Of a DNA stretch of 20,000 nucleotides, positions 2,592 through 19,791 are shown piece by piece. The position numbers and the translations under genes are program-made. The DNA lies in IMG/VR virus record IMGVR_UViG_3300042318_000627, positions 53,751-73,750 of that record. The stretch is one strand, 5' to 3'. This stretch comes from an uncultured virus (IMG/VR IMGVR_UViG_3300042318_000627) (lineage: Duplodnaviria > Heunggongvirae > Uroviricota > Caudoviricetes). Below the pieces are notes generated by a model that ran no database searches, was not told the DNA's origin, and saw only the letters and a list, made by a program, of their open reading frames with translations. Within the stretch, counting starts at the first letter, position 1, and each line of letters begins with the position of its first letter.

Positions 2592-2738
2592 ATGAAAAAT
2601 AGCATATACACATTTTTTGATAGAATGAGGCACGCTGGTATGCATTGTTTGTGCATAATAAAATGTATAAGATTGAGAAGAAATCCTGTGTTTTATATCA
2701 AAGGATTGTGTCGTACATTATTTACTATAAAGTATTAA
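2592..2738 (+). CDS. small hypothetical protein (48 aa, [14 protein letters not shown]...)
   Basis: Fills the gap, is preceded by TATTTATA, and its TAA overlaps the convergent gene's stop (TTAA at 2735-2738). Confidence 0.45.
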
Positions 2739-4132
2739 CAAGCGCGAGATGACGTGGCGGCGGTTCCTGTATACTGGGTTGTTATCGCAACTCCGCATGC
2801 AACAGAATACACTTTTCCATTTGGAGTTCCGGACGTGCTACTTGCGTTTCTGGTTACACCATATGGGTCGGTATAATCAAAATTGTAATTACCCTGCTGA
2901 TTACAAGTTGCATCAATCTGACGCGAATCCAATCTTGGGTCCGATGTTGATGAACACGCGGAAGTTCTCAAATTTGTTCCATACACAAGACGAAGTGAAT
3001 TTTGAACAATACAAACTCCGTTAACAGCGGTGGTGTATGGAGTTCCAGTTGAAGAAACAATCGTCGGTCCTCCTCCGGAATTCTCCCACGATGCAGATAC
3101 TCGACCAACCGAATCATAGTCCATCCATATTCGTTGACTTGGAACCGGAGTGGCCGTTGGCGTCGGTGTAGGCGTTGCTGTTGGTGTCGGCGTAGGAGTT
3201 GCCGTTGGTGTGGGAGTCGGCGTTGGGGTTGGTCCGGTTGGTGTTGGCGTTGGTGTTGGCGTTGGACCGGTTGCTGTTGGAGTTGGTGTCGGCGTTGCTG
3301 TTGGCGTTGGTGTTGGTGTCGGAGTGGACGTTGGCGTTGCTGTTGGCGTCGGAGTTGGTGCGGCAACACAATCAACAACATTTTCTGGATCAAATGAAAA
3401 TACATCATTATAACTCACAACTTCCAACAAATCAACACATGGAAATGCTCCAGACCCCGTTAAAGATTGAGTTGTAACTCCGTTGATAATTTCACTGATA
3501 TTATCAGATCCACCCGTACTAAGATTTCTGGTGTGATATTGATAATACCCGGATGCATTAAAAACTTTTAAATTTGTTGAGTATGAACCAGAACGGTATG
3601 AAAATAATTGTGCTTTTTTCAAACCATTTCCAGTTACTTTTGTCACTCTCATACGCACAGTATCCGGTATATTAGTTGTACGCATATATGAAAGAATATA
3701 TGTTCCGGATTGGAAGTTTGATGTGATATTATAAGATTGTCCAGTTGTCAATGTTGCTGCTACTACATTTCCATTAAAAACCACAGGATCGAGTGTTGTT
3801 GCAGCACGATCCCAATCAAGTGTATATGCTGTTTGTGATTGCGAGTCTATTCGCCAAACCAACTTTACTTCATTACCATAGCATTTTGTTGAACCAGTGA
3901 TTTGTATTTCATTGCAAGAAAACGATGCGGACATGTTTGCATCAACTGTTGGTGTTGGTGTTGGCGTTGGTGTTGGTGTTACATCTGAAACATACGGATC
4001 TCCCCAGCCAATATTGCGAGAATCAAATTCTTGTTTTAGATAAGCAAGTCCTTCGTCGGTGCCAATAATTTCTCCAAGTTTTCCAAATACGCTTCCCGAT
4101 GGTGTCCCGTGTGATGCAATTGTGTTAGACAT
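2735..4132 (-). CDS. Pro-Thr-linker virion surface/fibre-like protein (465 aa)
   Basis: True start is probably the ATG at 4132 ([13 protein letters not shown]...), which aligns with the N-terminus of the 4125-5114 protein. Two PT repeat tracts separate beta-rich Ser/Thr/Gly domains. Confidence 0.75.
3150..3365. repeat. degenerate hexanucleotide coding repeat (Pro-Thr/Ala)
   Basis: (GTTGGY/GTCGGN)n on the + strand encodes PTPTPTAT on the minus strand. Shorter tracts at ~3948-3980 and ~4845-4970. Confidence 0.9.
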
Positions 4133-5114
4133 AAATTGTGATATAACCATTGCCGGTTGCCAAACTTTCTTGGTTTCCTGTCTCATATACCCCACCGCCG
4201 CTGCTTCCGCCTCGTATGAAGGAAATTCCCACGTCACCACCTCCCGCACCACCACCACCTTGGCCGGGACCATATGTGTTGGTATTATGATTCTGAGGAC
4301 CGGAAGGACCATCTATTGCAATAAACAATATATCTTGCCACTCACCGTATGACGGCCCGACTGGACCGGCGTTACTAGAGCCACCACCTCCACCGCCACC
4401 ACCCACACCGATTTGTAATTCATCAGACCCATTTAAAATCACCGAAGCTCCACCTCCACCACCCCCGCCAGTTGAAAATGCCTCTCCCATAGCAGCAACT
4501 CCACCACGCCCACCGCTGTAATACCCAGCACCGGGCTCTCCGCCCTCCCATGCAAAATACCCAACACTACCACCCACGTTTCCTGGAATTAATTTATATG
4601 TTCCATCCAAACCGAAACCTCCTGAGAATCGCGACCCTTTTCCTCCAACTCCACCGGAATATGTCGAATCTCCACCAGCGCCCCCCGCAGCGCCGTTGAT
4701 ATCAATATACACGTTAAACGCACCCACCGCCGGAGAAATTGTCCACGTGTTATAACCAGATACAGTCAAAGGTCCATCCACATCCAAGTTCCATGTTGTT
4801 TTTGATCCTATTGCGGGTGATATATTCAACACTCTTTGTCCTGATGTCGGAGTAGGGGTTGGTGTCGGACCTCCTCCAGTTGGAGTTGGTGTCGGCGTAG
4901 CCGTTGGTGTCGGCGTAGCCGTTGGAGTTGGTGTTGATGTCGGAGTTGGCGTAGGCGTCGGAGTTGGTGCAACATTATACGCTCTCCATCCAATATTTGA
5001 AGAATCGCCAGATATTTTCACATATTTTAATCCATCGTTCATTTCTATCAATGATCCTATGGTGCCAAAAACTTGACCATTTGGATTTCCATGCAGTGGT
5101 ATTGTTCTTACCAT
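4125..5114 (-). CDS. Pro-Thr-linker, glycine-rich (polyglycine II-like) adhesin/tail-associated protein (329 aa)
   Basis: Shared ~45-aa N-terminal module, PT linker, and a C-terminal GAAGGAGG...GGGGGGAS...GNGYITI glycine-rich domain. Confidence 0.75.
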
Positions 5115-8202: not shown

Positions 8203-8475
8203 TCAGACCGTCGGCTCTTGCCAGTAAACCTTGCTGAAGGTCGTGCCCCAAGTGTCGGGACGAACGGCGATGGCCTTGAAGACCAAGGAGTTGTCGTGGC
8301 TCGGGTCAAAGACCTGATAGCCATATACCGGCCCCTTGTTCATGTCGCTGTCGCGCAGTATGTTGACGGCATAGCCCACCCGCTTGGCCTCCTTGACCAG
8401 ATTCTTGATGAAGCTGGTGGAGCAGACGCGGGTGAAGGTTGACCGAACAGGAGCAGTGTTGATGGTGGAGTTCAT
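8203..8475 (-). CDS. early-type hypothetical protein (90 aa), GC-rich codons
   Basis: ATG at +1 of the cassette copy at 8473-8510. Confidence 0.85.
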   Translation of the reverse strand: MNSTINTAPVRSTFTRVCSTSFIKNLVKEAKRVGYAVNILRDSDMNKGPVYGYQVFDPSHDNSLVFKAIAVRPDTWGTTFSKVYWQEPTV

Positions 8476-8521
8476 GTTCTAAACAATGACGATTATTTAT
8501 AAAAAGTAAAGCACAAAGCAC

Positions 8522-8546
8522 AAAAAAGGGGCTTTTTATTGCCCCC
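8522..8546 (-). terminator. rho-independent terminator
   Basis: Minus strand: GGGGC-AATAAAAA-GCCCC-TTTTTT. Confidence 0.7.
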
Positions 8547-8554
8547 TGTTTTAT

Positions 8555-8878
8555 TTAAATGATGCCCGCAACAAGCATCCAACTTGGACTACCTTCGCTG
8601 TCATAGCCGTCTGGCTCAACTACCTGACCAAGCATTGACTTGGCAACACCATCGTCGCTCCACTTTTCCATGGTCTTGAGCGAAGGAGCCTTGAACTTAG
8701 TGAAGTAGCGTGGCAGACTAGAGCAACGCAGCTTCACTGTCACAGGAACGCCGCCAGCACTGCCACCAGCCAGTGCGCAAACAGTGCCACCATCCTTGAA
8801 GATTACATTTAATTTTGTGCCAACAGGAATAACCAGACCGTTCTTGAACTTGATTTCTTTGTTATTAACGAGGTTCAT
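8555..8878 (-). CDS. hypothetical phage protein (107 aa; C-terminal VEPDG...PSW motif)
   Basis: Cassette-led ATG; the C-terminal motif resembles a recurrent small phage family (recalled, not searched). Confidence 0.85.
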   Translation of the reverse strand: MNLVNNKEIKFKNGLVIPVGTKLNVIFKDGGTVCALAGGSAGGVPVTVKLRCSSLPRYFTKFKAPSLKTMEKWSDDGVAKSMLGQVVEPDGYDSEGSPSWMLVAGII

Positions 8879-8909
8879 GTTATAGATAGTGTCTTACTTT
8901 TTATAAATG

Positions 8910-9176
8910 TCAACCAATTATTTTATCCAACGCGCTGATTGCAAGCAAATGACTTTCTTTACATTGCTTTGCACGCAGTTGCAAGTGCTCAACACTAACA
9001 TTCTTATAAAAATTATCTATAATATATTTGTTTTTGTCGCTCACATCTCCGTTGCTAATGTCATGAATGCATTCAGCACGACTATATTCATAACTGTCAT
9101 AATCCAAAGTGTCCATTTCCGAAAGTAAAATGTCTTGCAAAGCCCAAGGCAAATCAAAGAATGATGTTGGTTTCAT
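8910..9176 (-). CDS. hypothetical protein (88 aa)
   Basis: Cassette-led ATG; TGA stop lies inside the next -35 box. Confidence 0.8.
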   Translation of the reverse strand: MKPTSFFDLPWALQDILLSEMDTLDYDSYEYSRAECIHDISNGDVSDKNKYIIDNFYKNVSVEHLQLRAKQCKESHLLAISALDKIIG

Positions 9177-9208
9177 GTTCTAAACTATGAGTTAGATTTT
9201 ATAAAATG

Positions 9209-9415
9209 TCAAGGATTTTTATGGTCGCCAACCCAGATTCCAATGGGCGACTTGGAACGATCATATGCGCCATTCGCGCCGATAGGATAAATAAGATCAA
9301 GCGCATTTATGCCAGAAAATCGACCAGTTACACCGTTCATAACATCACAGCTAATGTCTCCACCGTGAACTTTCTTGATGTCGTTGAGTTGCTTGATAAG
9401 GTCTTTAAGTTTCAT
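9209..9415 (-). CDS. hypothetical protein (68 aa, MKLKDLIKQ...)
   Basis: Start reassigned to the cassette ATG at 9415. Confidence 0.8.
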   Translation of the reverse strand: MKLKDLIKQLNDIKKVHGGDISCDVMNGVTGRFSGINALDLIYPIGANGAYDRSKSPIGIWVGDHKNP

Positions 9416-9462
9416 GTTATAAATACTGACAGAGTTTTTATAAATGTCAAACCAAATTTCAA

Positions 9463-9669
9463 TCAATCCATACGCTTAACAATTACTTTAGTTTGTTTCA
9501 TTATGGATGAAAAAACGACCTGACTCAGTCTTTCGTTCCTCTGAATTTCGCCCAGTGTATTTGGGTTAACAACTCGTTGTGCTCCCTCTTGGCTAATACC
9601 ATAACCGTTTGCGGCATAAAATGAACCAAGCAAAATATAGTTTAGAGAATAGACGTAAATTAAGTTCAT
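9463..9669 (-). CDS. hypothetical protein (68 aa, MNLIYVYS...)
   Basis: ATG at 9669 follows a half cassette (-10 part only). Confidence 0.7.
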   Translation of the reverse strand: MNLIYVYSLNYILLGSFYAANGYGISQEGAQRVVNPNTLGEIQRNERLSQVVFSSIMKQTKVIVKRMD

Positions 9670-9679
9670 GTTATAAATA

Positions 9680-9835
9680 CTAAAATAGGGTGCTGCCAAT
9701 GTATGAGAGAATCAATCCAATAGAGCACAACAGTAATGCCAATTTACGGTATTTACCTTGCCCAATAGAATGGTTGTAAATAAAAAAGCCAGCGATAGAG
9801 AGCAAGCAGCCGAATAAGAGCAGGAATGATTTCAT
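9680..9835 (-). CDS. small membrane protein, two hydrophobic segments (51 aa)
   Basis: Cassette ATG at 9835; segments FLLLFGCLLSIAGFFIY and LALLLCSIGLILSYIGSTLF. Confidence 0.75.
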   Translation of the reverse strand: MKSFLLLFGCLLSIAGFFIYNHSIGQGKYRKLALLLCSIGLILSYIGSTLF

Positions 9836-9866
9836 GTTATAAATACTGACAGAGTTTTTATAAAAG

Positions 9867-10070
9867 TCAAGCCTTTGGAACAAGCACACCTTCTTTATTT
9901 CGTGAACGCTTTAAAGCATACCACGTCCAAGCGAATGGAAGAGCGAACGAAAGTAGAATTACAATTAACTTAAGAGTGATGGTTTCTTTCTTGAACGCTC
10001 TGATTGAGTAGTTTACATTCGATTTAAAATGCGCTTTGAAAGAGGTGTCTGTGGTTCGCGTGTAAATCAT
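9867..10070 (-). CDS. small membrane protein (67 aa)
   Basis: Cassette-led; one hydrophobic segment LIVILLSFALPFAWTWYAL. Confidence 0.75.
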   Translation of the reverse strand: MIYTRTTDTSFKAHFKSNVNYSIRAFKKETITLKLIVILLSFALPFAWTWYALKRSRNKEGVLVPKA

Positions 10071-10101
10071 AAGAGAGATAATGACTTACTTTTTATAAAT
10101 G

Positions 10102-10317
10102 TCAAGCAGCCTTTTCACCTTTGATAAACAGCAATTCTTTGACCTGCTTGATCTTGACAGTTTGACCCTCCTCGGCCAGAATTTTTGCTTCTTTCATAGC
10201 AGATTTGAGTGTTTTGAGTGTGGTGTCCAAGGTTTCATCGTCATATTCTCCCCAACCACTTGTGGCACCAATCGTGTAGAGTTCAAAGTATGTCTTGGTA
10301 AGTTTCTTGGATTTCAT
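10102..10317 (-). CDS. hypothetical protein (71 aa)
   Basis: Cassette-led ATG; TGA in the next -35 box. Confidence 0.8.
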   Translation of the reverse strand: MKSKKLTKTYFELYTIGATSGWGEYDDETLDTTLKTLKSAMKEAKILAEEGQTVKIKQVKELLFIKGEKAA

Positions 10318-10349
10318 GTTATAAATACTGACTTACTTATTATAAAATG

Positions 10350-10568
10350 TCAAGCACTCAATGCAAAATTGCTGCCAAATTTTCCAGTAACATTGCTGCG
10401 TTCAAAAGCAACAATGTCATTGTTCACAGAAAAAACAATTGAACGTATGATACCATATTCATCAAATTGAATGTTCAACAGTTTATATGATGTATTGGGT
10501 GCTACAACAATCCAAGTGTTGTTGTAGGTTTTCAAATTGGCGACATTGTTGAAGATAACAAATTTCAT
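10350..10568 (-). CDS. hypothetical protein (72 aa)
   Basis: Cassette-led ATG; TGA in the next -35 box. Confidence 0.75.
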   Translation of the reverse strand: MKFVIFNNVANLKTYNNTWIVVAPNTSYKLLNIQFDEYGIIRSIVFSVNNDIVAFERSNVTGKFGSNFALSA

Positions 10569-10607
10569 ACACTTAGATTGATCTATTATTTATAATAAGT
10601 CAAGAAA

Positions 10608-10772
10608 TTACTTCTTTTGATTTTCTAGAATCTCCTTTAGTTCCTTGGCGAAATCAACGACCCAGTATTCATCCAATCCAAGATCGCCCTTGGCCCAATG
10701 ATCGCCGCCGAGACGCTTTGCGTGCTTAATGAAAAGCTTATCTACCAGTTCTTGAAAATCGTTGTCGTTCAT
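10608..10772 (-). CDS. hypothetical protein (54 aa, MNDNDFQELVDKLF...)
   Basis: Manually translated (below the ORF track cutoff); ATG at +1 of a degenerate cassette. Confidence 0.8.
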   Translation of the reverse strand: MNDNDFQELVDKLFIKHAKRLGGDHWAKGDLGLDEYWVVDFAKELKEILENQKK

Positions 10773-10818
10773 AAAAGTAATAGTGAACTAAATTAAAAAA
10801 AAGTCCAGACAAAAGTAT

Positions 10819-10854
10819 AAAAAAAAGAGGGAGTCGCCACCACGCGACTCCCTC
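10819..10854 (-). terminator. rho-independent terminator
   Basis: 11-bp stem GAGGGAGTCGC/GCGACTCCCTC, 6-nt loop, T8 tract on the minus strand. Confidence 0.9.
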
Positions 10855-10880
10855 AACTATGAACACTCTCAACCTAAATC

Positions 10881-11234
10881 TTAGTGGTGGTTATAACAAG
10901 AAATTGGCTTGCCACCCCACACATAAAAGTTGCTGTAGCTGTTGTTCTTGACGCGATAGCCGTCGCCATCAGCAGTAAACCGCTTGGTTTCAGTATCACC
11001 CTTGATGCGATCCGTAGCAGGCGTGCTGATCCATTCCATGCCACCGCCGCCACTGTATTTGTTGTCAGCAGGCAAGCGCACAATCTTGACGCTTTTGCCA
11101 GTTACGGCCACAACCTTGGCCCACGACGCAATGCTGGCTTCATAGCCACTGATGCTGACCAATATGTCGCCAACCTTGGGACCATTGACAACCGTGGGCT
11201 TGTTTACCAGATCAGGAGAAAAGATAGAGTTCAT
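10881..11234 (-). CDS. hypothetical phage protein (117 aa; KVGDILVS..GYE motif)
   Basis: Cassette-led ATG; followed by a terminator. Confidence 0.85.
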   Translation of the reverse strand: MNSIFSPDLVNKPTVVNGPKVGDILVSISGYEASIASWAKVVAVTGKSVKIVRLPADNKYSGGGGMEWISTPATDRIKGDTETKRFTADGDGYRVKNNSYSNFYVWGGKPISCYNHH

Positions 11235-11277
11235 GTTGTAAACTATGACTGGTTTTTATAAAAAGTCGAGACAATAA

Positions 11278-11694
11278 TCAAATGTTGTTGAGAATATTTT
11301 GACTGTTGACGAATGTCTCATCGCCATTGTCATGCATAATCTTAACGCTAAAATCCTTGGCATCTAGACCATCAAACAAAGATGTGTTCAAAAACATATG
11401 TGGAAAAGATTCAATCAATTCAACAAATCCACTGTTAAATGATGGCGTATGAATCCAACGACCATTGCTGAGTTTATTAAACTCCTCACTATGAGTGCCT
11501 TTCACAAGCAAATTGGACCATTCCATAAGTTTTTGTTTATCAACAGATGCATCTCCACAAAATTTGCCAGAATTATATGGAAGATTGAAATACTCAAGCA
11601 GCATTTCATGCATGATCTCAGATTGATAGTCAGACAGACTTTGCTTGATCTCGTCGATTGTCAGAGCAATTGTGGTGTGCTTGGTGATCTTCAT
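11278..11694 (-). CDS. hypothetical protein (138 aa)
   Basis: Cassette-led ATG. Confidence 0.85.
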   Translation of the reverse strand: MKITKHTTIALTIDEIKQSLSDYQSEIMHEMLLEYFNLPYNSGKFCGDASVDKQKLMEWSNLLVKGTHSEEFNKLSNGRWIHTPSFNSGFVELIESFPHMFLNTSLFDGLDAKDFSVKIMHDNGDETFVNSQNILNNI

Positions 11695-11738
11695 GTTTAG
11701 AATACTGACAGAGTTTTTATAAAAAGCAACAGTATTTT

Positions 11739-12026
11739 TTAGTCAAACGCAGGATGACTGGCATTTGCAACATAGATATGAAAATGTGCTGTGCTGCGTG
11801 GAGCACGATAATCATTCAAATTTACGACATTAACATATTTCATTTCGTTGCGCGACTTGACCCAGCTCAATAGCTTGTCAACACTAGCATATGATTCCAC
11901 AGCCCAAGCCACACGGCTGGCTCCACCTCTTGCTCCACCCCAGCCGCTCATGCACTTGTCCTTGGCAACGATTGCCCACTTGTGAGTGATTTTCTGAGAT
12001 TCATTGCGATCATCTACGGTTTTCAT
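11739..12026 (-). CDS. hypothetical phage protein (95 aa; DKCMSGWGGA motif)
   Basis: Start reassigned to the cassette ATG at 12026. Confidence 0.85.
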   Translation of the reverse strand: MKTVDDRNESQKITHKWAIVAKDKCMSGWGGARGGASRVAWAVESYASVDKLLSWVKSRNEMKYVNVVNLNDYRAPRSTAHFHIYVANASHPAFD

Positions 12027-12069
12027 GTTATATATACTGACTATTTTTTTATAAAAAGCAACTCTATTT

Positions 12070-12201
12070 TTACTGCCACTTGTTGTTTCTGTTCTTGCGA
12101 GTGTAGGCACCTTTGCCTTTTTTGGTTTTGTGAATCTGATTGCCCAGATTCATGCCAGAGCTGAACACGCTGCGAAGTTTGATTGGCGAGTTGGTCTTCA
12201 T
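12070..12201 (-). CDS. ArfA-like (alternative ribosome rescue factor A-like) small basic protein, 43 aa
   Basis: MKTNSPIKLRSVFSSGMNLGNQIHKTKKGKGAYTRKNRNNKWQ; KKGKGAYTRK matches the ArfA KKGKGSYxRK signature; own cassette promoter. Confidence 0.65.
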   Translation of the reverse strand: MKTNSPIKLRSVFSSGMNLGNQIHKTKKGKGAYTRKNRNNKWQ

Positions 12202-12233
12202 GTTGAATACACTGACAGAGTTTTTATAAAAGG

Positions 12234-12419
12234 TCAAGAAGCTTCTTCGGTATCTTGATCAACGTAACTGTATGAAATACAATCAATTTCGTTCCAAAAC
12301 TTATTCAAGGCTTTGATCTCGGCCTCAATTTTGGACTCTGCTGAAACGGTATATGTGCGTTCTACCTGTTCACGCGGGTCATAAACACTTTGAGCGTAGA
12401 TGGTGGTGATGAAGTTCAT
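12234..12419 (-). CDS. hypothetical protein (61 aa)
   Basis: Start reassigned to the cassette ATG at 12419. Confidence 0.8.
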   Translation of the reverse strand: MNFITTIYAQSVYDPREQVERTYTVSAESKIEAEIKALNKFWNEIDCISYSYVDQDTEEAS

Positions 12420-12450
12420 GTTTATGACTATGGCAGAGTTTTTATAAATG

Positions 12451-12672
12451 TCAAACAGATATTGGTGCTGGACGACCAGTGGCGTCATCAAAAATATAAT
12501 TCACTGCATCTTCTGATTGTGCAGCACGACTTTTGATTGGAACATACCAACGAGAAAGCAGCTCATGCCCAGCTTTTTCAGCTTCAATTTTGGTGGCAAA
12601 TCGCAGAGCATTGCTTGCCCAAGATTTTTCGCCTTGATACATTGTGCAAACTTCAGTTTTCCAAGATTTCAT
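12451..12672 (-). CDS. hypothetical phage protein (73 aa; NALRFAT.EAE motif)
   Basis: Start reassigned to the cassette ATG at 12672. Confidence 0.85.
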   Translation of the reverse strand: MKSWKTEVCTMYQGEKSWASNALRFATKIEAEKAGHELLSRWYVPIKSRAAQSEDAVNYIFDDATGRPAPISV

Positions 12673-12710
12673 ATTTAAGATAATGTATGAGTTTTTATTA
12701 AAAGCGAGAC

Positions 12711-12875
12711 TTATTTTACTTTTTTGGATGATAGTTGAGCTTTCCAAGCAGCAACAACTGCATCAACTGCGAACTTATGCTCGTCTTCTGTGATTCTCGT
12801 AGCAGCACAAGCTTCGTCCAGCTCAAACACAATGTTGCCAATTTCAACGCCAGTGATAATTGATTTAGAGTTCAT
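12711..12875 (-). CDS. hypothetical protein (54 aa)
   Basis: Start reassigned to the cassette ATG at 12875. Confidence 0.8.
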   Translation of the reverse strand: MNSKSIITGVEIGNIVFELDEACAATRITEDEHKFAVDAVVAAWKAQLSSKKVK

Positions 12876-12921
12876 AAATAAGATAATGTATGATTTTTTA
12901 TTAAAAGCGAGACTTATTTTT

Positions 12922-13119
12922 TCAATCAACAAAGTAAATCACTTTGTCAGAGTGCCCTACGTCATAACTCAGTCTCATTTTCATAAGCCGTTCAGAGTTC
13001 TTGTCGAGATAGTCGTGGAACTCTTCATATGAGCAATCAGTAAACCGCATCCAAATTCTCAATCGAAGTTGAGTAGGAAACCGGCCAAGCTCTCTCTCAA
13101 AGTTGATGATAATTTTCAT
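12922..13119 (-). CDS. hypothetical protein (65 aa)
   Basis: Cassette-led ATG. Confidence 0.75.
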   Translation of the reverse strand: MKIIINFERELGRFPTQLRLRIWMRFTDCSYEEFHDYLDKNSERLMKMRLSYDVGHSDKVIYFVD

Positions 13120-13157
13120 ATTTAAAACAATAGCAGAGTTTTTATAGAAAGCGAGAC

Positions 13158-13376
13158 TTATTTTAAATTTTCAACGGTCCAACCACGCTGCCAAGCATCC
13201 ATGAGCTTCAACAGTTGCTTGGTAAATTTCCAATCAGCTGTGCTGTATTTCTTGATGAAATAACTAAACTCAACATCAGATGCACAAGCACACAAGATGC
13301 CACGCTGAAAAGCGGCTGCACCCATAACAGTTGCTTTGTTCAAGTCGTTCTGAAAATCTGCTTTGGTGAGGTTCAT
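13158..13376 (-). CDS. hypothetical protein (72 aa)
   Basis: Cassette-led ATG. Confidence 0.8.
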   Translation of the reverse strand: MNLTKADFQNDLNKATVMGAAAFQRGILCACASDVEFSYFIKKYSTADWKFTKQLLKLMDAWQRGWTVENLK

Positions 13377-13412
13377 ACTTAAAACAATGTCAGAGTTTTT
13401 ATAAAAAGCAAG

Positions 13413-13441
13413 AAAAAAGGGGAGGTTTTTTATGCCTCCTC
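13413..13441 (-). terminator. rho-independent terminator
   Basis: Minus strand: GAGGAGG-CATAAAAAA-CCTCCCC-TTTTTT. Confidence 0.7.
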
Positions 13442-13466
13442 TTTTCTTATGAACCCAACGAAAAAA

Positions 13467-13658
13467 TCAAAAGTCAAGAAATTCTGGTTCAATAAGTGAT
13501 ACATTTATAGCATCATCAAACAGCAGCACATTGTCACCATTGTCTTCATCAACCCAATATGTCAATGACATATTTTGATTTTCATGAATAACTGCAACAG
13601 TGCCTGTGCTTGTTGAACAGTTATGAGGAAATGATAATCTGTCGCCTACAAGATACAT
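13467..13658 (-). CDS. hypothetical protein (63 aa, MYLVGDRL...)
   Basis: ATG 1 nt after the upstream stop (TAA-A-ATG), so probably translationally coupled. Confidence 0.75.
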   Translation of the reverse strand: MYLVGDRLSFPHNCSTSTGTVAVIHENQNMSLTYWVDEDNGDNVLLFDDAINVSLIEPEFLDF

Positions 13659-13659
13659 T

Positions 13660-13971
13660 TTACTCGTCCTCCCCACCAAAGCTGTCAATCGACGGGCAGT
13701 AGTTTTCCTCGTCATCATAGCCAGCGGAACGCAGAGCGTCAGCATCAGCCTCGCCGTCGTGGCGAAACTGGTCAGGCTCGTTGTCATCACCAGAGCTACC
13801 GAAATCAACAATGCCTTGCTCATGCAACAAGTCCACGAGATAATCAACATCATCGGTGTTGATTGTCATATTGTCATAATCAACGCTATACTGGGGCGTG
13901 CTGTCAAGCTCCAGAGCAGTGACGGCGAGCAGAAACAGACCCTTTTCGGTGAAGGTGATTGAGGAGTTCAT
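13660..13971 (-). CDS. highly acidic protein (103 aa)
   Basis: Cassette-led; very Asp/Glu-rich, with few basic residues. Confidence 0.85.
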   Translation of the reverse strand: MNSSITFTEKGLFLLAVTALELDSTPQYSVDYDNMTINTDDVDYLVDLLHEQGIVDFGSSGDDNEPDQFRHDGEADADALRSAGYDDEENYCPSIDSFGGEDE

Positions 13972-14013
13972 ATTTAAAACAATGACAGAATTTTTATAAA
14001 AAGCAAGACCTAT

Positions 14014-14205
14014 TTATTCTTCGGAGGTTTTGGACTTACATGGCAAAGGGCGGACAATTTCCAGATCAACACGCCACTCATAAGTGGCATCATTTCCATA
14101 AGCAATCTTGACCAAATTACTTCCATCTCCGTAGTGGCCAACAACCATACACTGAAAGCCCTTGAACCTGCCCTTATGTGGGATGACGATTGAATGAAGT
14201 TTCAT
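14014..14205 (-). CDS. hypothetical protein (63 aa, possible SH3/KOW-like)
   Basis: Cassette ATG at 14205; VIPHKGRFKG..CMVV pattern. Confidence 0.75.
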   Translation of the reverse strand: MKLHSIVIPHKGRFKGFQCMVVGHYGDGSNLVKIAYGNDATYEWRVDLEIVRPLPCKSKTSEE

Positions 14206-14243
14206 GAGTAATACTATGACTATTTTTTTATAAAAAGCAACTC

Positions 14244-14471
14244 TTATTTTGCCAATTTGCTGTTCACAACGTGTTTGATCAGGTCGTTGAGACCCTTGCC
14301 CACATACTTGCAACGCTTGAGCAAGTTTTTGCTGTCATAATTCGGAAAGCCACTTTCTTCTTCTATCGAATCGGGTGAAAGAAAAACCCACTTATTTTCT
14401 GCCCTGAGATACAGATAAATAAAACCTTCTTTATTTTCAACGTAATAACCGGGTTTTGGTGATTTGTTCAT
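14244..14471 (-). CDS. hypothetical protein (75 aa)
   Basis: Cassette-led ATG. Confidence 0.8.
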   Translation of the reverse strand: MNKSPKPGYYVENKEGFIYLYLRAENKWVFLSPDSIEEESGFPNYDSKNLLKRCKYVGKGLNDLIKHVVNSKLAK

Positions 14472-14509
14472 ATTTAGAATAATGTCAGAGTTTTTATAAA
14501 AAGCAACAC

Positions 14510-14755
14510 TTATTTATCAAAAGTTGCGATTGGCTCAATGCCACCCACCAAGCTGCGAACAAAATGACATTTCAGCGTGTCGCTGTTCCAAGCAGTAAAA
14601 GTGAATTTGCGACCATCATAGCTCAACACTTTTTTGCTGATCTTCTTTACATCATCCCAACCATTTGGAACATCAACAGTAAGAAATTCACGCTGAACAT
14701 CTGGACGATATGAGTAAACAACTGAAATGTCGTTGGGAAGAATGGTTGCTTTCAT
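14510..14755 (-). CDS. hypothetical protein (81 aa)
   Basis: Cassette-led ATG. Confidence 0.8.
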   Translation of the reverse strand: MKATILPNDISVVYSYRPDVQREFLTVDVPNGWDDVKKISKKVLSYDGRKFTFTAWNSDTLKCHFVRSLVGGIEPIATFDK

Positions 14756-14793
14756 ATTTAAAACAATGACAGAATTTTTATAAAAAGCAACTC

Positions 14794-14922
14794 TTATTTT
14801 TTCTTCTTTGGCACACTAACAATGTATTTTCCACTGCGTTCAGAGAAAGCATAATTGCTTGTTGCTAAATTTTTCTTGGCAAATTCAATAACTTGCTGCT
14901 TTGTGAATCGTTTGAGTTTCAT
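14794..14922 (-). CDS. small basic protein (42 aa, MKLKRFTKQQVIEF...)
   Basis: Manually translated; fills the gap, with TAA just before the next cassette. Confidence 0.6.
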   Translation of the reverse strand: MKLKRFTKQQVIEFAKKNLATSNYAFSERSGKYIVSVPKKKK

Positions 14923-14973
14923 GAATAAAAATTGTGCGTGAGTTGATATGCGCACCCCATCATTGAAATTTAT

Positions 14974-15267
14974 TTACACAATCTCAACGTCCTTGAAATA
15001 TCGCTCAGAACGATGCAGAATTTCACTCCAATCATTTTCTACGCTACTTGGAATTTCATCATCAAAGTGCGGAAACGCTTCGGCACGACCAAGCGCAATG
15101 TTCAACGCCAGTTCTGGGTTGAACTTGTCGCCTCGGTTGGTGGCACACAGGCTGTAGCCAAAGCCAACTGTATTGTCGTGCCGCTTCACAGCGACGACCA
15201 CGCCGACTTTTTGCCGTCGCCGGTTGCGAACATACTGAAAGATAGTGTTGTTAGGAGGATTGATCAT
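14974..15267 (-). CDS. hypothetical phage protein (97 aa; GYSLC..DKFN..LA..IA..RA, N4 Gp49/Sf6 gp66-like pattern)
   Basis: ATG at 15267 after a ~25-nt CAA-rich leader. Family resemblance is from memory only. Confidence 0.75.
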   Translation of the reverse strand: MINPPNNTIFQYVRNRRRQKVGVVVAVKRHDNTVGFGYSLCATNRGDKFNPELALNIALGRAEAFPHFDDEIPSSVENDWSEILHRSERYFKDVEIV

Positions 15268-15336
15268 AGGTATTGTGTTGTTGTTTGACTGAAATAATGA
15301 TAGTAGCAGAGTTTTTATAAAAAGCAACTCTATTTT

Positions 15337-15699
15337 TTAGCGAAGATACGCAGGACCATATTCAGTGAATTTGGTCAGCACGTTGGCATCCTTGACGTTG
15401 CCGCGCACGCCCTTGGCAACAGGAGCCTTCCAAGTGCCTTTGAGCAAATCGCCAGTGGCTACGTCATAGAAGCAATAAACGCCAACGGCTTTGAGCGGAC
15501 CAGTGCGATGCGGCACGCGCTCACACTTAGCAAGTTTGGCATAACGCTCGCCCACGCTGTCAACCATGACCACGGGAGCATCATTGTGCGTGAAGTTGTT
15601 GCGTTGCCAATAATCACTGATTTTCTTGTTCACGCCACGAATAAAATCCGTGAGCGGCATATCATTTTTCAGAGCATCAATAGTGTCGGTCTTGTTCAT
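15337..15699 (-). CDS. conserved-type phage protein (120 aa; TGDLLK..WKAP..RGNV motif)
   Basis: Cassette ATG at 15699; the motif resembles a recurrent small family of T4-like phages (recalled, not searched). Confidence 0.85.
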   Translation of the reverse strand: MNKTDTIDALKNDMPLTDFIRGVNKKISDYWQRNNFTHNDAPVVMVDSVGERYAKLAKCERVPHRTGPLKAVGVYCFYDVATGDLLKGTWKAPVAKGVRGNVKDANVLTKFTEYGPAYLR

Positions 15700-15734
15700 G
15701 TTTAGAAATATGTCAGAGTTTTTATAAAAGTCAA

Positions 15735-16124
15735 TCACCAATCATACATTTTAGGAACCATTTTTCCATTTTCACGCAGCCAGCCCACGTTTCCATGATG
15801 TAGGTCAGGAGCATAACCCTTGGCGATGTATGGTGCCAGTTGCCTCAGCAGCACCCCTACAGCCTCTTTTAAGCGGGTTTTCTTCACAATTGGCTGCACA
15901 ACCCACCCTCGCTGCAATTTGGTCGTAGGAACGCACAGAAACGACGGCGTTCGGGGTTCTAGGATGAGCGCAGGTCGCTTCACGACGATGCCCAGACCAT
16001 GATGATAATACGCATCAATGACGCGATATGCCGACTTTACTTTCTGAAAGCCAGCCACCTTTATGTTGTTCTCAAACAACAATGTTGCAGAATTGAGTGA
16101 TTTTATGATTTGCTTTTGCGTCAT
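15735..16124 (-). CDS. minimal protein-kinase-like (PKL fold) protein (129 aa)
   Basis: IVVKRP (VAIK-like Lys), PDLHHGNVG (catalytic loop) and terminal MYDW (DFG equivalent); ATG at 16124. Confidence 0.65.
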   Translation of the reverse strand: MTQKQIIKSLNSATLLFENNIKVAGFQKVKSAYRVIDAYYHHGLGIVVKRPALILEPRTPSFLCVPTTKLQRGWVVQPIVKKTRLKEAVGVLLRQLAPYIAKGYAPDLHHGNVGWLRENGKMVPKMYDW

Positions 16125-16125
16125 G

Positions 16126-16160
16126 AAAAATAAATGGTCCACCGTTTTCTGGTGGACCAT
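16126..16160 (-). terminator. rho-independent terminator
   Basis: 10-bp stem ATGGTCCACC/GGTGGACCAT, 7-nt loop, then TTATTTTT on the minus strand. Confidence 0.8.
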
Positions 16161-16166
16161 GTTCAG

Positions 16167-16469
16167 TCAGCAAAGGTCAGACGCCACCGCCTCAACCGCA
16201 GATGTCAGGGGCACAGCAGTCTTGGCATCGGCCCGAGTGAAGATCAGTTCACGCGCACCACGCCGAGCCTTGGCAGGCGTCTTTGCACCAACCACAGTGA
16301 TGGTGCCAGCCGCCAGAGCCTTCTTCACGCGCATATACGCAGTGATATACTTGGGATGGTTGCCCGTGGATGTCAGGCTCTTGACCGTGAAAGGCTTGCT
16401 AGGAAAGTTGAGCGTGAAGCCATACTTGATGCGCTTGGATGCAGTGGCAGTGGCAGTTGTATTGGACAT
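16167..16469 (-). CDS. basic, possibly winged-helix DNA-binding protein (100 aa)
   Basis: PFTVKSL...YITAYMRVKKALAAGTITVVG...RRGARELIF pattern; own promoter and terminator. Confidence 0.7.
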   Translation of the reverse strand: MSNTTATATASKRIKYGFTLNFPSKPFTVKSLTSTGNHPKYITAYMRVKKALAAGTITVVGAKTPAKARRGARELIFTRADAKTAVPLTSAVEAVASDLC

Positions 16470-16536
16470 ATTATTGTTGTTGTTTTTTATTACTTTATTA
16501 CTGTAGCAGAGTTTTTATAAAAAGCAAGACTATTTT

Positions 16537-16701
16537 TTAGTTTGGGTTTTTGAGCATACTTTCATATGCTTCTTTGATACGAACCCGCACATAATTTTGA
16601 CGAGATTCACTGTCTTTGAGAGCAAGAAAATCATAATCTGTTGCAAGCATTTTCAGAGTAGATTCCAAATAACCAGCGAGGTAAGGATAGTTGTAGTTCA
16701 T
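16537..16701 (-). CDS. hypothetical protein (54 aa)
   Basis: Start reassigned to the cassette ATG at 16701. Confidence 0.8.
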   Translation of the reverse strand: MNYNYPYLAGYLESTLKMLATDYDFLALKDSESRQNYVRVRIKEAYESMLKNPN

Positions 16702-16766
16702 ATTATAGATAATGTATGAGTTTTTATAAAAGTCGAGCAGAAAATAAAACAAAGCAACTCTATTTT

Positions 16767-17108
16767 TTACCAAAAACTCCTATTCAATTCATATCCTTCA
16801 TTCTGAAACAATGCACAGATTCGATTGTAAATTTCTTTCTTTTGCATCATGTAATGATAATCACGTTCACCTGGTCGAAAATTGCTCCATTGATTTGCTG
16901 CATAACTTTGAGCCAATTGAGCCTTGAGATCATTCACATCTGCATAAGCACCACGAAATCCATAAAGATTATAGTGAGCAATAAATCCGCTTGACAAATA
17001 AAGAAACTTGTAAGCAGAGTTGGTGAGATTATTGATGTCATTTGTTTCAAACACTTTGCGAATGCTTGAAACAATGAGGTCGGTTTGGCGAAGAGTTTTA
17101 AGTTCCAT
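16767..17108 (-). CDS. hypothetical phage protein (113 aa; GFIAHYNLYGF motif)
   Basis: Cassette-led ATG. Confidence 0.85.
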   Translation of the reverse strand: MELKTLRQTDLIVSSIRKVFETNDINNLTNSAYKFLYLSSGFIAHYNLYGFRGAYADVNDLKAQLAQSYAANQWSNFRPGERDYHYMMQKKEIYNRICALFQNEGYELNRSFW

Positions 17109-17152
17109 GTTTAAAACAATGACAGAGTTTTTATAAATGTCCAGACTTATTT

Positions 17153-17380
17153 TTAATCTTTGCTTGCGTATTCAACGGCGCGATCCGCATCCAGTAGTTC
17201 GGAATAGGCGTCGGCAACCGCGTCGTTGGCGGCGGTGTAGGCGTTACCGAGTTTGTCAATTTCGGTCTTGCTGGATCTGGCTTCAATGGCGGCGACGTAG
17301 GCAGAGAAAGCAACCTTAGCAGCGGCTTTGGCTTTTGCGTGAAATAAGAGGGCGCGTTTGGCTTTGGTTTTAAGATCCAT
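17153..17380 (-). CDS. Ala-rich helical protein (75 aa)
   Basis: Cassette-led ATG. Confidence 0.8.
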   Translation of the reverse strand: MDLKTKAKRALLFHAKAKAAAKVAFSAYVAAIEARSSKTEIDKLGNAYTAANDAVADAYSELLDADRAVEYASKD

Positions 17381-17425
17381 AAATAAAACAATGACTATTT
17401 TTTTATAAAATGCAACTCTTATTTT

Positions 17426-18016
17426 TTAGAATGACTTCAACTTGGCAACTTTTCCTGCGATGGTTTTTTTATGCATATCTGTCAAAGAATACTTGACAGA
17501 CGATTGGCATACATCATAAACAGAACAGCCAAAGCAACGATCATTGAGATTGCGATTGGGATAAACGCAACTGTTTTTAGTTTCATTCTCAAAATTGAGA
17601 GGCACGTGCGGACTCTTGAAGTAGTCAGGATTGCCGCTCCAAGGAAAAATCAACACCTTGGGCTGTTCTGGCTGTTTGACTAGCTCAACCTCACATACAG
17701 GTAGATTCTTGGATGCTTTGGCAGGCTTGGATGACTTATTGTTTAATGCTGGCAGCTTGCCATCATTTGCTTTTAGAATGGCTAATATGCTGTCAGAATC
17801 CCATCCAGCATCCACATATTTCTGCACAGGTCGCAGCACATAAGTCTTGAACAGCTTTTCTTCAGTGCCATATTTCTTGACCACATCCTTGAAGCGTGGT
17901 TCTGGAGCAAATGTTTCTTGACCAGAAACAATGCATTTCCAATAAAAATATTTTCCATTGCCACTGGTTTCAATACCAGAGGGACGAACAATGCGAGCAA
18001 TTGATTTACGAGCCAT
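17426..18016 (-). CDS. hypothetical protein with C-terminal Cys cluster (196 aa)
   Basis: Cassette-led ATG; CVYP...CFGC...VC may bind metal. Confidence 0.85.
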   Translation of the reverse strand: MARKSIARIVRPSGIETSGNGKYFYWKCIVSGQETFAPEPRFKDVVKKYGTEEKLFKTYVLRPVQKYVDAGWDSDSILAILKANDGKLPALNNKSSKPAKASKNLPVCEVELVKQPEQPKVLIFPWSGNPDYFKSPHVPLNFENETKNSCVYPNRNLNDRCFGCSVYDVCQSSVKYSLTDMHKKTIAGKVAKLKSF

Positions 18017-18115
18017 GTTGTTATATTGAACTAAATTTTATAAAAAGCAAGACAAATCTGGCGTGATAAAGTTTTTCGCCACCCACTACGAGACTACTCG
18101 CTACGGTAAAAATTT

Positions 18116-18237
18116 CTCTCACAACACCCAACGTCGCCGCACAGTCTTGACCAATGCCTATTTCATTATTATCAAGATTATAACTGTCGGCAACCAAAAC
18201 ATCAATAGGTTCGTGAAGTTTGTTAGGAGCGTGAGAG
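18116..18237 (-). ncRNA. candidate structured ncRNA domain with pseudoknot
   Basis: Nested complementary segments 18231-37/18116-22, 18222-27/18127-32, 18188-94/18133-39, 18183-87/18141-45, 18172-76/18146-50 and 18164-67/18153-56; loop 18157-62 complements 18204-09. Confidence 0.6.
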
Positions 18238-18268
18238 TCCAAGGAGATCAATCCTCAGAAAGTTTTAA

Positions 18269-18340
18269 TGTGGCGGCGGTAGTTTTCAACCGCTAATACC
18301 CAGCACTAGGAAGGGCTGCTCCATGCTTTGCTTCACCACA
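18269..18340 (-). ncRNA. tRNA-like 72-nt cloverleaf (non-canonical or pseudo-tRNA)
   Basis: 7-bp acceptor-like stem TGTGGTG/CGCCACA; adjacent 5-bp T-like stem GCGGT/ACCGC with non-canonical loop TGAAAACT; CAGC..GCTG arm; no encoded CCA. Confidence 0.5.
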
Positions 18341-18362
18341 AAAAATATTATAAAAGAACTTG

Positions 18363-18456
18363 TCAATCAACTGCATCATGACCTAATTCATTCTGCAATG
18401 CTTCGCTGGCAGTATCCCACCTCGCGTCCGCTAGGCTACGGCTTCTGTTGATTGAC
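18363..18456 (-). ncRNA. candidate ncRNA domain closed by a 10-bp terminal stem
   Basis: Begins at the predicted +1 of cassette 18464-18491; GTCAATCAAC pairs with GTTGATTGAC. Confidence 0.55.
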
Positions 18457-18487
18457 TATCCCAACACTAACAGTGTTTTTATAAAAG

Positions 18488-19093
18488 TCAATAACTAAAC
18501 AAAACTTTCCATTGTCCAGTAGCCAAACCTTTGTTTTCTTTCATTGCTGCATATGAATCTGCGCGACTGGGTATATGATATTCTTCTGTTGCAACAAATG
18601 CAAATGGTTTCATAGAGTTTTTGGTTCTGCTGTTTAAGAATTGAGAATAAGCATATTTCAGAACATCTGGATTGAATGTAACAGCATCCTTTTTGGAAAA
18701 GTTCATCACAATTTGTTTTGACGTTGGATTATAAAGAACAAACTGTTGTGCATCTTTATAAATGATGGTTTCTTGAACATATTTTTTACCCAACTTCACT
18801 GCATCATCAAATGAAATTTCTGGAATAAATAATGATCTTTCTTCGGCGGGAGTGCCATCATCATATGTGTATCCAGACTTTTGCTCAATATATCCATGCT
18901 TCAAAGCACGCACATCCGCTTTTAATTGTGCAAACAACTCTAGGTTTTTTTCTAAAGTATTTTCATTTCTGAATGGAGAAATAACAGCAAAACTTTCGCT
19001 GTTGGTGACATGTTGCCATACACGACTCAATGTTGTTTCATTCACAACTTTGAATTTATTTCCGCCGATGTTCTCAAAAATGTTATTTACCAT
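18488..19093 (-). CDS. conserved-type phage protein (201 aa; NETTLSRVWQH...FAVISPFR...ERSLFI...QETI)
   Basis: ATG at 19093 is preceded by ATATTTATT rather than the early cassette; AT-rich codons. Confidence 0.85.
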   Translation of the reverse strand: MVNNIFENIGGNKFKVVNETTLSRVWQHVTNSESFAVISPFRNENTLEKNLELFAQLKADVRALKHGYIEQKSGYTYDDGTPAEERSLFIPEISFDDAVKLGKKYVQETIIYKDAQQFVLYNPTSKQIVMNFSKKDAVTFNPDVLKYAYSQFLNSRTKNSMKPFAFVATEEYHIPSRADSYAAMKENKGLATGQWKVLFSY

Positions 19094-19110
19094 AACAATA
19101 AATATCAAAC

Positions 19111-19791
19111 TTATTTAGATAGATGCTTGCAAACAATATTGATAATTTCCAAACTTGCAGCAGCCGCATCAGTTGATCTCAGCCGATACTTATCAAACAA
19201 AATTGTTTGAATGTCTTTTTCAGCCGTGTTATCATTATCAAATGGGTTTGTTTCTGGGCCTTTTTGCACAACACCCAAAATGGTTTTGCAGTCTCCATCG
19301 TAATCACTTCCAATAGCAGTAACAACAGCTTCCCAAGAAGGCCCATTGTTATAATAGTTAGGCAAAAACACAGTGTCTCCCACCTTCACATCAACTGGTC
19401 CAGTCAAATAGGTGTATTGACCATTGATCATGATCTTTTGACCACCAAACACTTCATCTCCACCATCGGAATTCAAGATGGTGCTTGGAGCGTGCTTGCG
19501 AATGAGCTTATAGAACTCAACCACAACACTGTCATATGGCTTGCGAGCAGTTTTGCAAAACTCAAATTCACTTGCACCCTTGTAAACAACAGCAGTTTCG
19601 TGCGAATCGTCACCGATACCATTGAACATGATATGCCGAGTATTAAAAACTGGCTTGCTGCCAATTTCACCATTGGCATCACCCAACGGCACGTTTGAAT
19701 TTTTAATCAGTTTCTTTACATCCTCAGTCAATGCAGCCCATTGACTATCAGTGAAAGCAGGTTTGTTTTTAAAATAATGTGAGTAGCCCAT
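19111..19791 (-). CDS. phage protein, apparent two-domain fusion (226 aa; MGYSHY...FNG...HET...FCKTARKPYD)
   Basis: Cassette-led ATG; the N-terminal motif set resembles a recurrent phage family (recalled, not searched). Confidence 0.85.
   Translation of the reverse strand: MGYSHYFKNKPAFTDSQWAALTEDVKKLIKNSNVPLGDANGEIGSKPVFNTRHIMFNGIGDDSHETAVVYKGASEFEFCKTARKPYDSVVVEFYKLIRKHAPSTILNSDGGDEVFGGQKIMINGQYTYLTGPVDVKVGDTVFLPNYYNNGPSWEAVVTAIGSDYDGDCKTILGVVQKGPETNPFDNDNTAEKDIQTILFDKYRLRSTDAAAASLEIINIVCKHLSK

Follow-up and report, generated by a model that had tools for sequence, protein, structure and literature searches.

We have found that a short gene on the minus strand of a phage genome encodes a 43-residue peptide, MKTNSPIKLRSVFSSGMNLGNQIHKTKKGKGAYTRKNRNNKWQ, that by its sequence is ArfA-like in the half that would bind the ribosome and new in the half expected to decide the outcome. 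The gene lies in a window (the whole stretch of DNA that was analysed, 20,000 nucleotides long) that corresponds to G000:C1:53751-73750 of a 73,750-base virus record; coordinates are collected in Table 1. We think it probable that the peptide is a phage-encoded, pre-trimmed ArfA-like rescue factor that frees stalled host ribosomes. That phages carry ArfA-like genes is already known, and what is new here is the front half, RSxF[TS]SGxNLG. Indeed, a phage ArfA would not in itself be a novelty, since gp30 of Pelagibacter phage HTVC027P, which has a canonical ArfA N-terminus, has been named ArfA, with PF03889, and is reported to be highly expressed early and late (PMC12753301), and GenBank annotations of such genes exist.

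Table 1. Positions of the features discussed (plain numbers refer to the window, prefixed ones to other records)
Feature	Position	Strand	Details
ArfA-like ORF, 43 aa	12070..12201	minus	ATG at 12201, TAA stop at 12072-12070
HKTKKGKGAYTRK motif, codons H24-K36	12094..12132	minus	E30-K42 in E. coli ArfA, within the mRNA-channel segment
Block KxRSxF[TS]SGxNLG, codons K8-G20	12142..12180	minus	in place of the RF2-activating region of ArfA
Promoter-like cassette of the ORF	12202..12237	minus	-35 TTGACC (12237-12232), 17 nt, -10 CAGTGT (12214-12209), 7 nt, ATG
Cassette of the next gene	12027..12061	minus	begins 9 nt past the ORF stop; ATG 12026
Small-gene array holding the ORF	8203..19791	minus	most genes with a like cassette; putative early region
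Two proteins with long Pro-Thr repeats	2735-5114	minus	525 and 329 aa
PhoH	3-614
[FW]NTG-type ArfA-like peptides	L011, L054, L055, L057, L062, L063; L030, L032, L033		phage contigs; chromosomal in MAGs (L030, L032, L033)
[FW]NTG ORF of Verrucomicrobiota MAGs	L030:5971-6090, L032:5971-6090, L033:5971-6090, L108		39 aa, GTG start, chromosomal
[NS]EI[SG]RGxGxHK-KKGKGSY proteins, Clostridia/other Bacillota	L026:5896-6084, L027:5905-6093, L029:5905-6123; P0080, P0086
ArfA-like motif inside larger proteins	L015:4710-5195 (also L016, L017, L019), L012:1940-2302, P0083		120-161 aa
Canonical ArfA ORFs unannotated or wrongly annotated in GenBank phages	L025:2486-2638, L111:434-556, L113:365-517, L114:389-514, L110:398-541
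tmRNA of relative G001	L076:7795-8185
Auxiliary genes of relative G001	L074:18475-L075:3205, L075:13679-15652, L076:3407-4897, L079:6831-7379

A conserved gene in a small-gene array

The original prediction was of a small ORF with an ArfA-type motif near its C-terminus and named no strand; the minus strand is the coding one, and on it the 43-residue product does carry HKTKKGKGAYTRK at residues 24-36. The ORF is a real, conserved protein-coding gene. Its start, length and stop are fixed across a family of about 80 sequence clusters, whose DNA context, where seen, consists of viral contigs only, and the family is under purifying selection (pN 0.21, pS 0.66, pN/pS 0.32; uncorrected values from a 29-codon core of 15 coding sequences). 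A search with the single sequence returned nine clusters at 77-93% identity (9/9 candidates), and a 12-sequence profile returned 134 proteins at E <=1 among 1,804 candidates, the best 77 of the matches listed having E <=6.6e-6; both of these protein searches covered lengths of 23-79 aa. An index-free search gave 15 matches and added eight family members once one spurious protein had been removed (P0124, a 2,332-aa repeat protein without the matched stretch). Classified by pattern, 83 of 128 proteins belong to the RSxF[TS]SGxNLG family. The claim that the peptide is unannotated needs qualifying, as a PF03889 match is precomputed for 22 of the 77 closest clusters and JGI names six of the 77 ArfA.

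The alignment comprises 62 sequences that remained after removal of entries with over-long start calls, of fragments and of some near-duplicates. The aligned members are 38-49 aa long and end at about positions 48-54 of E. coli ArfA. R10, S11, G29, Y33 and R35 are invariant (62/62), and H24 (60/62), F13 and L19 (59/62 each) and G16 and N18 (58/62 each) nearly so; the N-terminal half thus has, at the level of sequence, its own nearly invariant motif, RSxF[TS]SGxNLG. A scan of 185,579 prokaryote genomes gave eight loci, none with an N-terminus of this type, a result to be read as not found rather than absent because the pattern covers 43 of the 62 members. In the ESM Atlas the top cluster for the peptide (0.93) has 50 members, 62% of them with PF03889. 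Of four metatranscriptome runs, one (X1, 11713-12184) has contigs over most of the ORF and X5 (11954-12101) over part of it, while a contig of X3 reaches 12184 at a joint; such contigs are blind to strand, start and level, and DNA may be present, so they are not proof that the ORF is expressed.

The gene was also said to have a cassette of its own, and this proved to be so: a TTGACC element and a CAGTGT element precede its ATG. The pattern recurs at 22 minus-strand sites in the window, of which 20 lie within 8.2-19.8 kb; positions -13, -12 and -8 are C, A and T, respectively, in 19 of the 22 each (-10 CAnnnT), and a repeat finder independently recovered the element as families of 19-21 copies. 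None of the 22 cassettes has a Shine-Dalgarno-like word. A generic sigma-70 scan did not flag the cassette of the ORF (two sites were found, against 2.4 expected), and a terminator scan of the window called none on the minus strand. Among the array proteins scanned, 25 of 30 had no PHROG match and five matched families of unknown function. Of 20 viral loci of the family, 14 keep the layout of the ORF's cassette while the neighbours change; relatives differ in gene order within the array, and contigs are joined at or close to cassettes, a pattern suggestive of recombination among the near-identical copies. From their spacing we infer that the cassettes may be host-polymerase promoters that give leaderless early mRNAs. 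When 194 genes of one Limisphaerales genome were examined for a leaderless -10 signal, a candidate was counted 15 times at offset -12 but just as often, 15 times, at -4. The description of the peptide as a constitutive early factor is apt as to the early-type cassette, and "constitutive" is better replaced by "not under tmRNA feedback".

An ArfA-like C-terminal half and a replaced front half

Several lines of evidence bear out the ArfA-likeness of the C-terminal half. The Pfam search called for by the original prediction returned ArfA (PF03889) as the sole match (22.7 bits, E 6.8e-5; residues 22-39 on profile positions 26-43 of 44), although the score is below the gathering cut-off of 25.5, and all 12 members of a first alignment likewise matched ArfA only. 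No NCBIfam model matches the peptide, and among PHROGs there was only phrog_37108, of unknown function (E 0.016). When a profile of the 62 sequences was run against 177,635 PDB sequences, E. coli ArfA chains took the first six places among eight matches (E 2.4e-4 to 2.6e-3; seventh place at 0.67), with peptide residues 22-42 on E. coli ArfA 28-48. Comparison by hhalign of the family with an ArfA alignment of ten sequences (the E. coli protein plus nine phage proteins that it retrieved) gave a probability of 95.4%. One part of the condition under which the proposal was said to fail was that no profile match extended beyond a low-complexity Lys/Gly motif. That concern holds in part: the match stops at residue 22, yet it is no low-complexity artefact, as none of 20,000 shuffles of the peptide reached the 19.7 bits that the real sequence scores against the profile of these independently found ArfAs (19,868 scored, the best at 12.5 bits). 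In addition, a relaxed form of the motif, sought in six-frame translations of phage and Verrucomicrobiota DNA (1,394,376 residues), occurred once, in the family member itself.

In register, the peptide corresponds to E. coli ArfA 7-49; G35, Y39 and R41 of E. coli ArfA are kept in 62 of 62 members and K or R stands at K44 in 59 of 62. ArfA is described as active when cut at Asn47 and dead when cut after Met40, and its residues 31-48 as lying in the mRNA tunnel (PMC5378476). The basic C-terminal segment KKGKGSYxRK of the peptide reaches past the equivalent of Asn47 and ends at E. coli position 49, just beyond the shortest active truncation, so that in length the peptide matches the trimmed form that is active. 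We consider an ArfA-like action at the mRNA channel a good inference from this homology. In E. coli, as set out in PMC8012679, the hydrophobic tail of ArfA puts arfA under tmRNA control and is regulatory, being unneeded for activity. The phage ORF was predicted to have a normal stop and no such tail, and it indeed ends with TAA ten residues past the motif Tyr, compared with 33 in E. coli ArfA; across the 62 aligned members the count is 9-15 and no tail is longer than 15. An arfA-like 3' hairpin was looked for at the ORF and not found, and the ORF shows none of the non-stop mRNA, hydrophobic-tail and tmRNA-feedback features of ArfA. To judge from its sequence, the peptide appears to be already trimmed and not subject to tmRNA feedback.

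The N-terminal half is a different matter, as had been suspected: hhalign gives 0.19% for the N-halves and 97.0% for the C-halves. Because the N-terminal halves do not align, RF2 recruitment and rescue remain putative. In ArfA, a minidomain at the N-terminus (Ala18, Pro23 and Leu19/Leu24/Phe25) is reported to open RF2 (PMC5378476). The peptide does not reproduce it, and only the placement of L19 on F25 (59/62) is safe in both registers that we considered. In the ungapped register Ala18 falls on a mostly bulky position (V, I or Q in 52/62), and in the one-gap register of hhalign, which is of low confidence, on the invariant Ser11; the Pro23 position is V/L/I/M or Gly, depending on the register, and the Leu24 position is Asn. 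Residues R26, R28 and E30, which according to PMC8012679 touch the decoding centre or form part of the strand that binds RF2, are respectively G, variable and H in the family. The strand 25-30, which in ArfA augments the sheet of RF2 domain 2/4, is hydrophobic at F25 in 59 of 62 members, I or V at V29 in 46 of 62, and G-rich between. The KH motif that ArfA shares with BrfA is lacking: the H45 position is His in six of 62, Tyr in 33 and Asn in 12, including this ORF. With 43 residues and no GGQ, the peptide also has no catalytic domain of the ArfB/release-factor kind. Since it departs from ArfA in score, N-terminal domain, KH and regulation, we do not file it as ArfA proper. A complex prediction that paired the peptide alignment (62 rows) with RF2 domains 2-4 from Limisphaerales as a stand-in (21 rows) scored 0.00 in two runs; the controls did not fold, and the score counts neither for nor against an interaction.

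Proposed ribosome rescue and its alternatives

We propose that the peptide would be made early by the host RNA polymerase from a leaderless mRNA, that its basic KKGKG[SA]YxRK tail would enter the empty mRNA channel of a 70S ribosome stalled on a truncated mRNA, as ArfA 31-48 does, and that residues from about 19 to 24 would supply an extra strand to a class-I release factor of the host. The RSxF...NLG block would then take the role that the minidomain at the N-terminus plays in ArfA and open the release factor (most likely RF2, possibly RF1), so that peptidyl-tRNA could be cut without a stop codon. As the gene ends in a normal stop and lacks a hydrophobic tail, the promoter rather than tmRNA would set the level of the peptide. 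The phage would gain additional free ribosomes for its own translation at a time when host mRNA is decaying or is being cleaved by defence nucleases. Our certainty is greatest for early leaderless synthesis and falls through channel entry and release-factor opening to the promoter-set level; ribosome binding is deduced from homology, and activation of the release factor is the weakest step of the mechanism.

Release-factor-dependent rescue factors are described as species-adapted and most divergent at the N-terminus, as in ArfA and BrfA (PMC8012679, PMC6881298), and for that reason the replaced front half fits a host-adapted rescue factor. It also fits the main rival explanation, namely that the peptide plugs the ribosome channel with an ArfA tail whose N-terminal block does not activate a release factor. 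Such a plug would compete with SmpB-tmRNA, ArfB or hibernation factors; alternatively it might hold RF2 closed, as does the ArfA A18T mutant, which is reported to bind RF2 without activating it (PMC8012679, PMC5378476), or protect idle 70S ribosomes for leaderless initiation. Demonstrable ArfA-likeness is limited to the channel half, the residues at the Ala18 position in the ungapped register are those given above, and the small-gene array of the phage appears leaderless, all of which speaks for a plug. Position 18 is, however, unconserved among canonical phage ArfAs too, most members keep L19 on F25 and a hydrophobic residue at V29, and relatives of the phage carry their own tmRNA, which fits the promotion of rescue more than its blocking. 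We regard a plug as unlikely.

Somewhat less probable is an action off the ribosome, in which a basic peptide that descends from ArfA, or resembles it by convergence, would bind nucleic acids, for instance phage DNA or RNA, or work inside the head. It has 11 K/R and no acidic residue in 43, an AlphaFold2 model of the peptide alone is without secondary structure (pLDDT 67.6, pTM 0.20), and the motif is also embedded in head-cluster proteins (L012, L015-L017, L019). The exact conservation of G, Y, R and their spacing goes beyond mere charge, though, the length of the peptide ends at the functional boundary of ArfA, and the gene sits in the small-gene array, not among head genes; as for the model, the ArfA chain is likewise described as flexible and partly disordered (PMC8012679, PMC5378476). 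That the ORF is a chance Lys/Gly-rich frame in a repeat-rich region, with no function, is very improbable: it is short, it scores below the Pfam cut-off, tblastn with the peptide found no match in 50,697 phage records, and its ESM recognition value of 2276 is slightly below the 2300 mark, but these points are set against the fixed start, length and stop of the clusters, the excess of pS over pN and the retention of the cassette despite changing neighbours.

If the peptide does rescue ribosomes, then phages supply unregulated rescue to hosts in which surveys find no ArfA: Table 1 of PMC11633108 gives arfA in 0 of 211 PVC, 0 of 1,956 FCB and 0 of 2,376 Alphaproteobacteria genomes. Its N-terminal block would be a further natural means, after ArfA, BrfA and ArfT, of opening a release factor without a stop codon. 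If instead it plugs without rescue, it would be a 43-residue ribosome ligand with a new activity. We note that ArfA is reported to rise in DRT2-defended cells, where it is proposed to release the toxic Neo protein (PMC11100668); because rescue pathways touch anti-phage defence in this way, the direction of any benefit to the phage is not obvious.

Related peptides, the phage and its host

The peptide shares with E. coli ArfA (YhdL; PF03889; PDB 5U4I, 5MDV, 5H5U, 5MGP) the C-terminal motif and its spacing, a basic composition, the absence of GGQ, the length of the active trimmed form and L19 on F25. Unlike E. coli ArfA it has an N-half that cannot be aligned, altered R26, R28, E30 and KH, no hydrophobic tail or 3' hairpin, and a normal stop, and it is phage-borne. 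The canonical phage ArfAs (HTVC027P gp30 and those of Brevundimonas phage Bambus, Citromicrobium phage RXM and Pseudoalteromonas phage J2-1) are, like the peptide, phage-encoded and short, and most of them have a normal stop soon past the motif. Their N-terminus is NPxAxxLxxPxF/YR, in contrast to the RSxF[TS]SGxNLG of the peptide family, and all seven that were scanned (a set that did not include gp30 and J2-1) reach the Pfam cut-off, whereas the peptide family stays below it. Several carriers infect Alphaproteobacteria. An E. coli ArfA query matched 17 records of the phage collection at E <=10, three of them annotated as alternative ribosome-rescue factor, and a roseophage query matched 34; many of these matches are weak, and each list includes three Salmonella records resembling E. 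coli, which in the E. coli ArfA list are 95-99% identical to the query. Canonical ArfA ORFs were also noted in GenBank phages in which they are unannotated (pf16, RsoM2USA, Cr30 and CRP-212) or called "ribosomal protein L2" (Arash), and all five pass the Pfam cut-off. In searches of the mainly open-access literature we found no paper that describes the present family or tests any phage ArfA. Precedent comes from BrfA of B. subtilis and ArfT of F. tularensis, small release-factor-recruiting rescue factors with lineage-specific N-termini. ArfT is reported to use RF1 or RF2 and not to be regulated by tmRNA (PMC6881298, PMC8012679), a likeness to the peptide by description only. BrfA, unlike the peptide, is made from non-stop mRNA; no BrfA chain was among the PDB matches at E <=10, and the helical N-terminus of BrfA has no counterpart in the low-confidence lone model of the peptide.

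At least five N-terminal types are seen on the channel motif. Besides the family described here, the 128 proteins include 14 of an EIxRG/NRG type, 11 canonical-like, five [FW]NTG, five RRPDW and ten others. The closest sister is the [FW]NTG type (hhalign 98.3%; N-halves alone 6%), which like the peptide has HK before the motif and N-[LT]-G at the same place, and one member of which (L062) starts KIRS. Its N-half differs in being two residues shorter and in lacking the F[TS]SG block; its nearest PHROG is 37108, of unknown function, and we found no function described for it in the literature. A chromosomal ORF of this type in Verrucomicrobiota MAGs has a normal stop, scores 24.7 bits against Pfam and is syntenic in L030 and L032. 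It is not a general gene of that phylum, being found in one of 401 genomes of the phylum and three of 201 of the order, with the seed genome (G006) in both counts. PF03889 run over 301 Verrucomicrobiota genomes gave 19 matches at E <=0.1, none above the cut-off and only that of G006 credible on inspection. In Clostridia, EIxRG/NRG-type ORFs (L026, L027, L029) follow Shine-Dalgarno-like words and score below the Pfam cut-off; the Bacillota proteins of the [NS]EI[SG]RGxGxHK-KKGKGSY form are candidates for unrecognised rescue factors.

The motif is also found inside larger proteins. One such gene (L015) has a prohead protease (PF03420) on one side and a scaffold-like gene on the other and precedes the capsid gene, and the C-terminal part of these proteins has no profile match but presumably resembles T4 prohead core proteins. 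The embedded motif could be a virion-borne copy, and because it sits inside head-cluster proteins the ArfA-like motif may serve other ends. It is conceivable, if somewhat doubtful, that the ArfA channel motif is mainly a phage-borne module with interchangeable N-terminal adaptors fitted to host phyla, the bacterial ArfA-like genes being scattered captures. RSxF[TS]SGxNLG would then be, with the same degree of doubt, a new release-factor opener or a block that plugs or reserves 70S ribosomes for leaderless phage mRNAs, acting in hosts that are believed to have no ArfA, and head-cluster copies could even be delivered with the virion.

The carrier is a large freshwater bacteriophage: sequence related to it occurs in freshwater, lake and estuary RNA runs, and a relative (G001, 297 kb, 100% complete by CheckV), which covers 66% of the 73,750-base record at about 81% identity, encodes a T4-like terminase, Gp23 capsid protein, tail sheath and family B polymerase. 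This relative also carries a tmRNA (94 bits), 37 tRNAs, peptide deformylase, RlaP and RNA ligases. A full tmRNA is present in three of the five records with the peptide gene; no release factor (one of the five being complete) and no SmpB was found in any of the five. tmRNA and tRNAs are common in large phages, and their co-occurrence with the peptide is for that reason weak support. The tmRNA of G001 has an unusually long predicted tag, AKRNLAKVSFLSVRKNSGAETLVAA, which arises from an insertion relative to the Rfam model, and no SmpB was found with it. Auxiliary genes of the same phage (a CsgG, FecR and CHASE2-cyclase cluster, a TPS/haemagglutinin-like protein, and tyrosinase, haem oxygenase, UvdE and RlaP) suggest a Gram-negative host. 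A beta-barrel-like protein of G001 has 119 homologues and weak matches in two of 151 Verrucomicrobiota genomes (E 1e-6 and 2e-4), and Verrucomicrobiota are a weak lead as host. Lastly, elsewhere in the window are a PhoH gene and two Pro-Thr repeat proteins, the latter probably tail-fibre or adhesin linkers.
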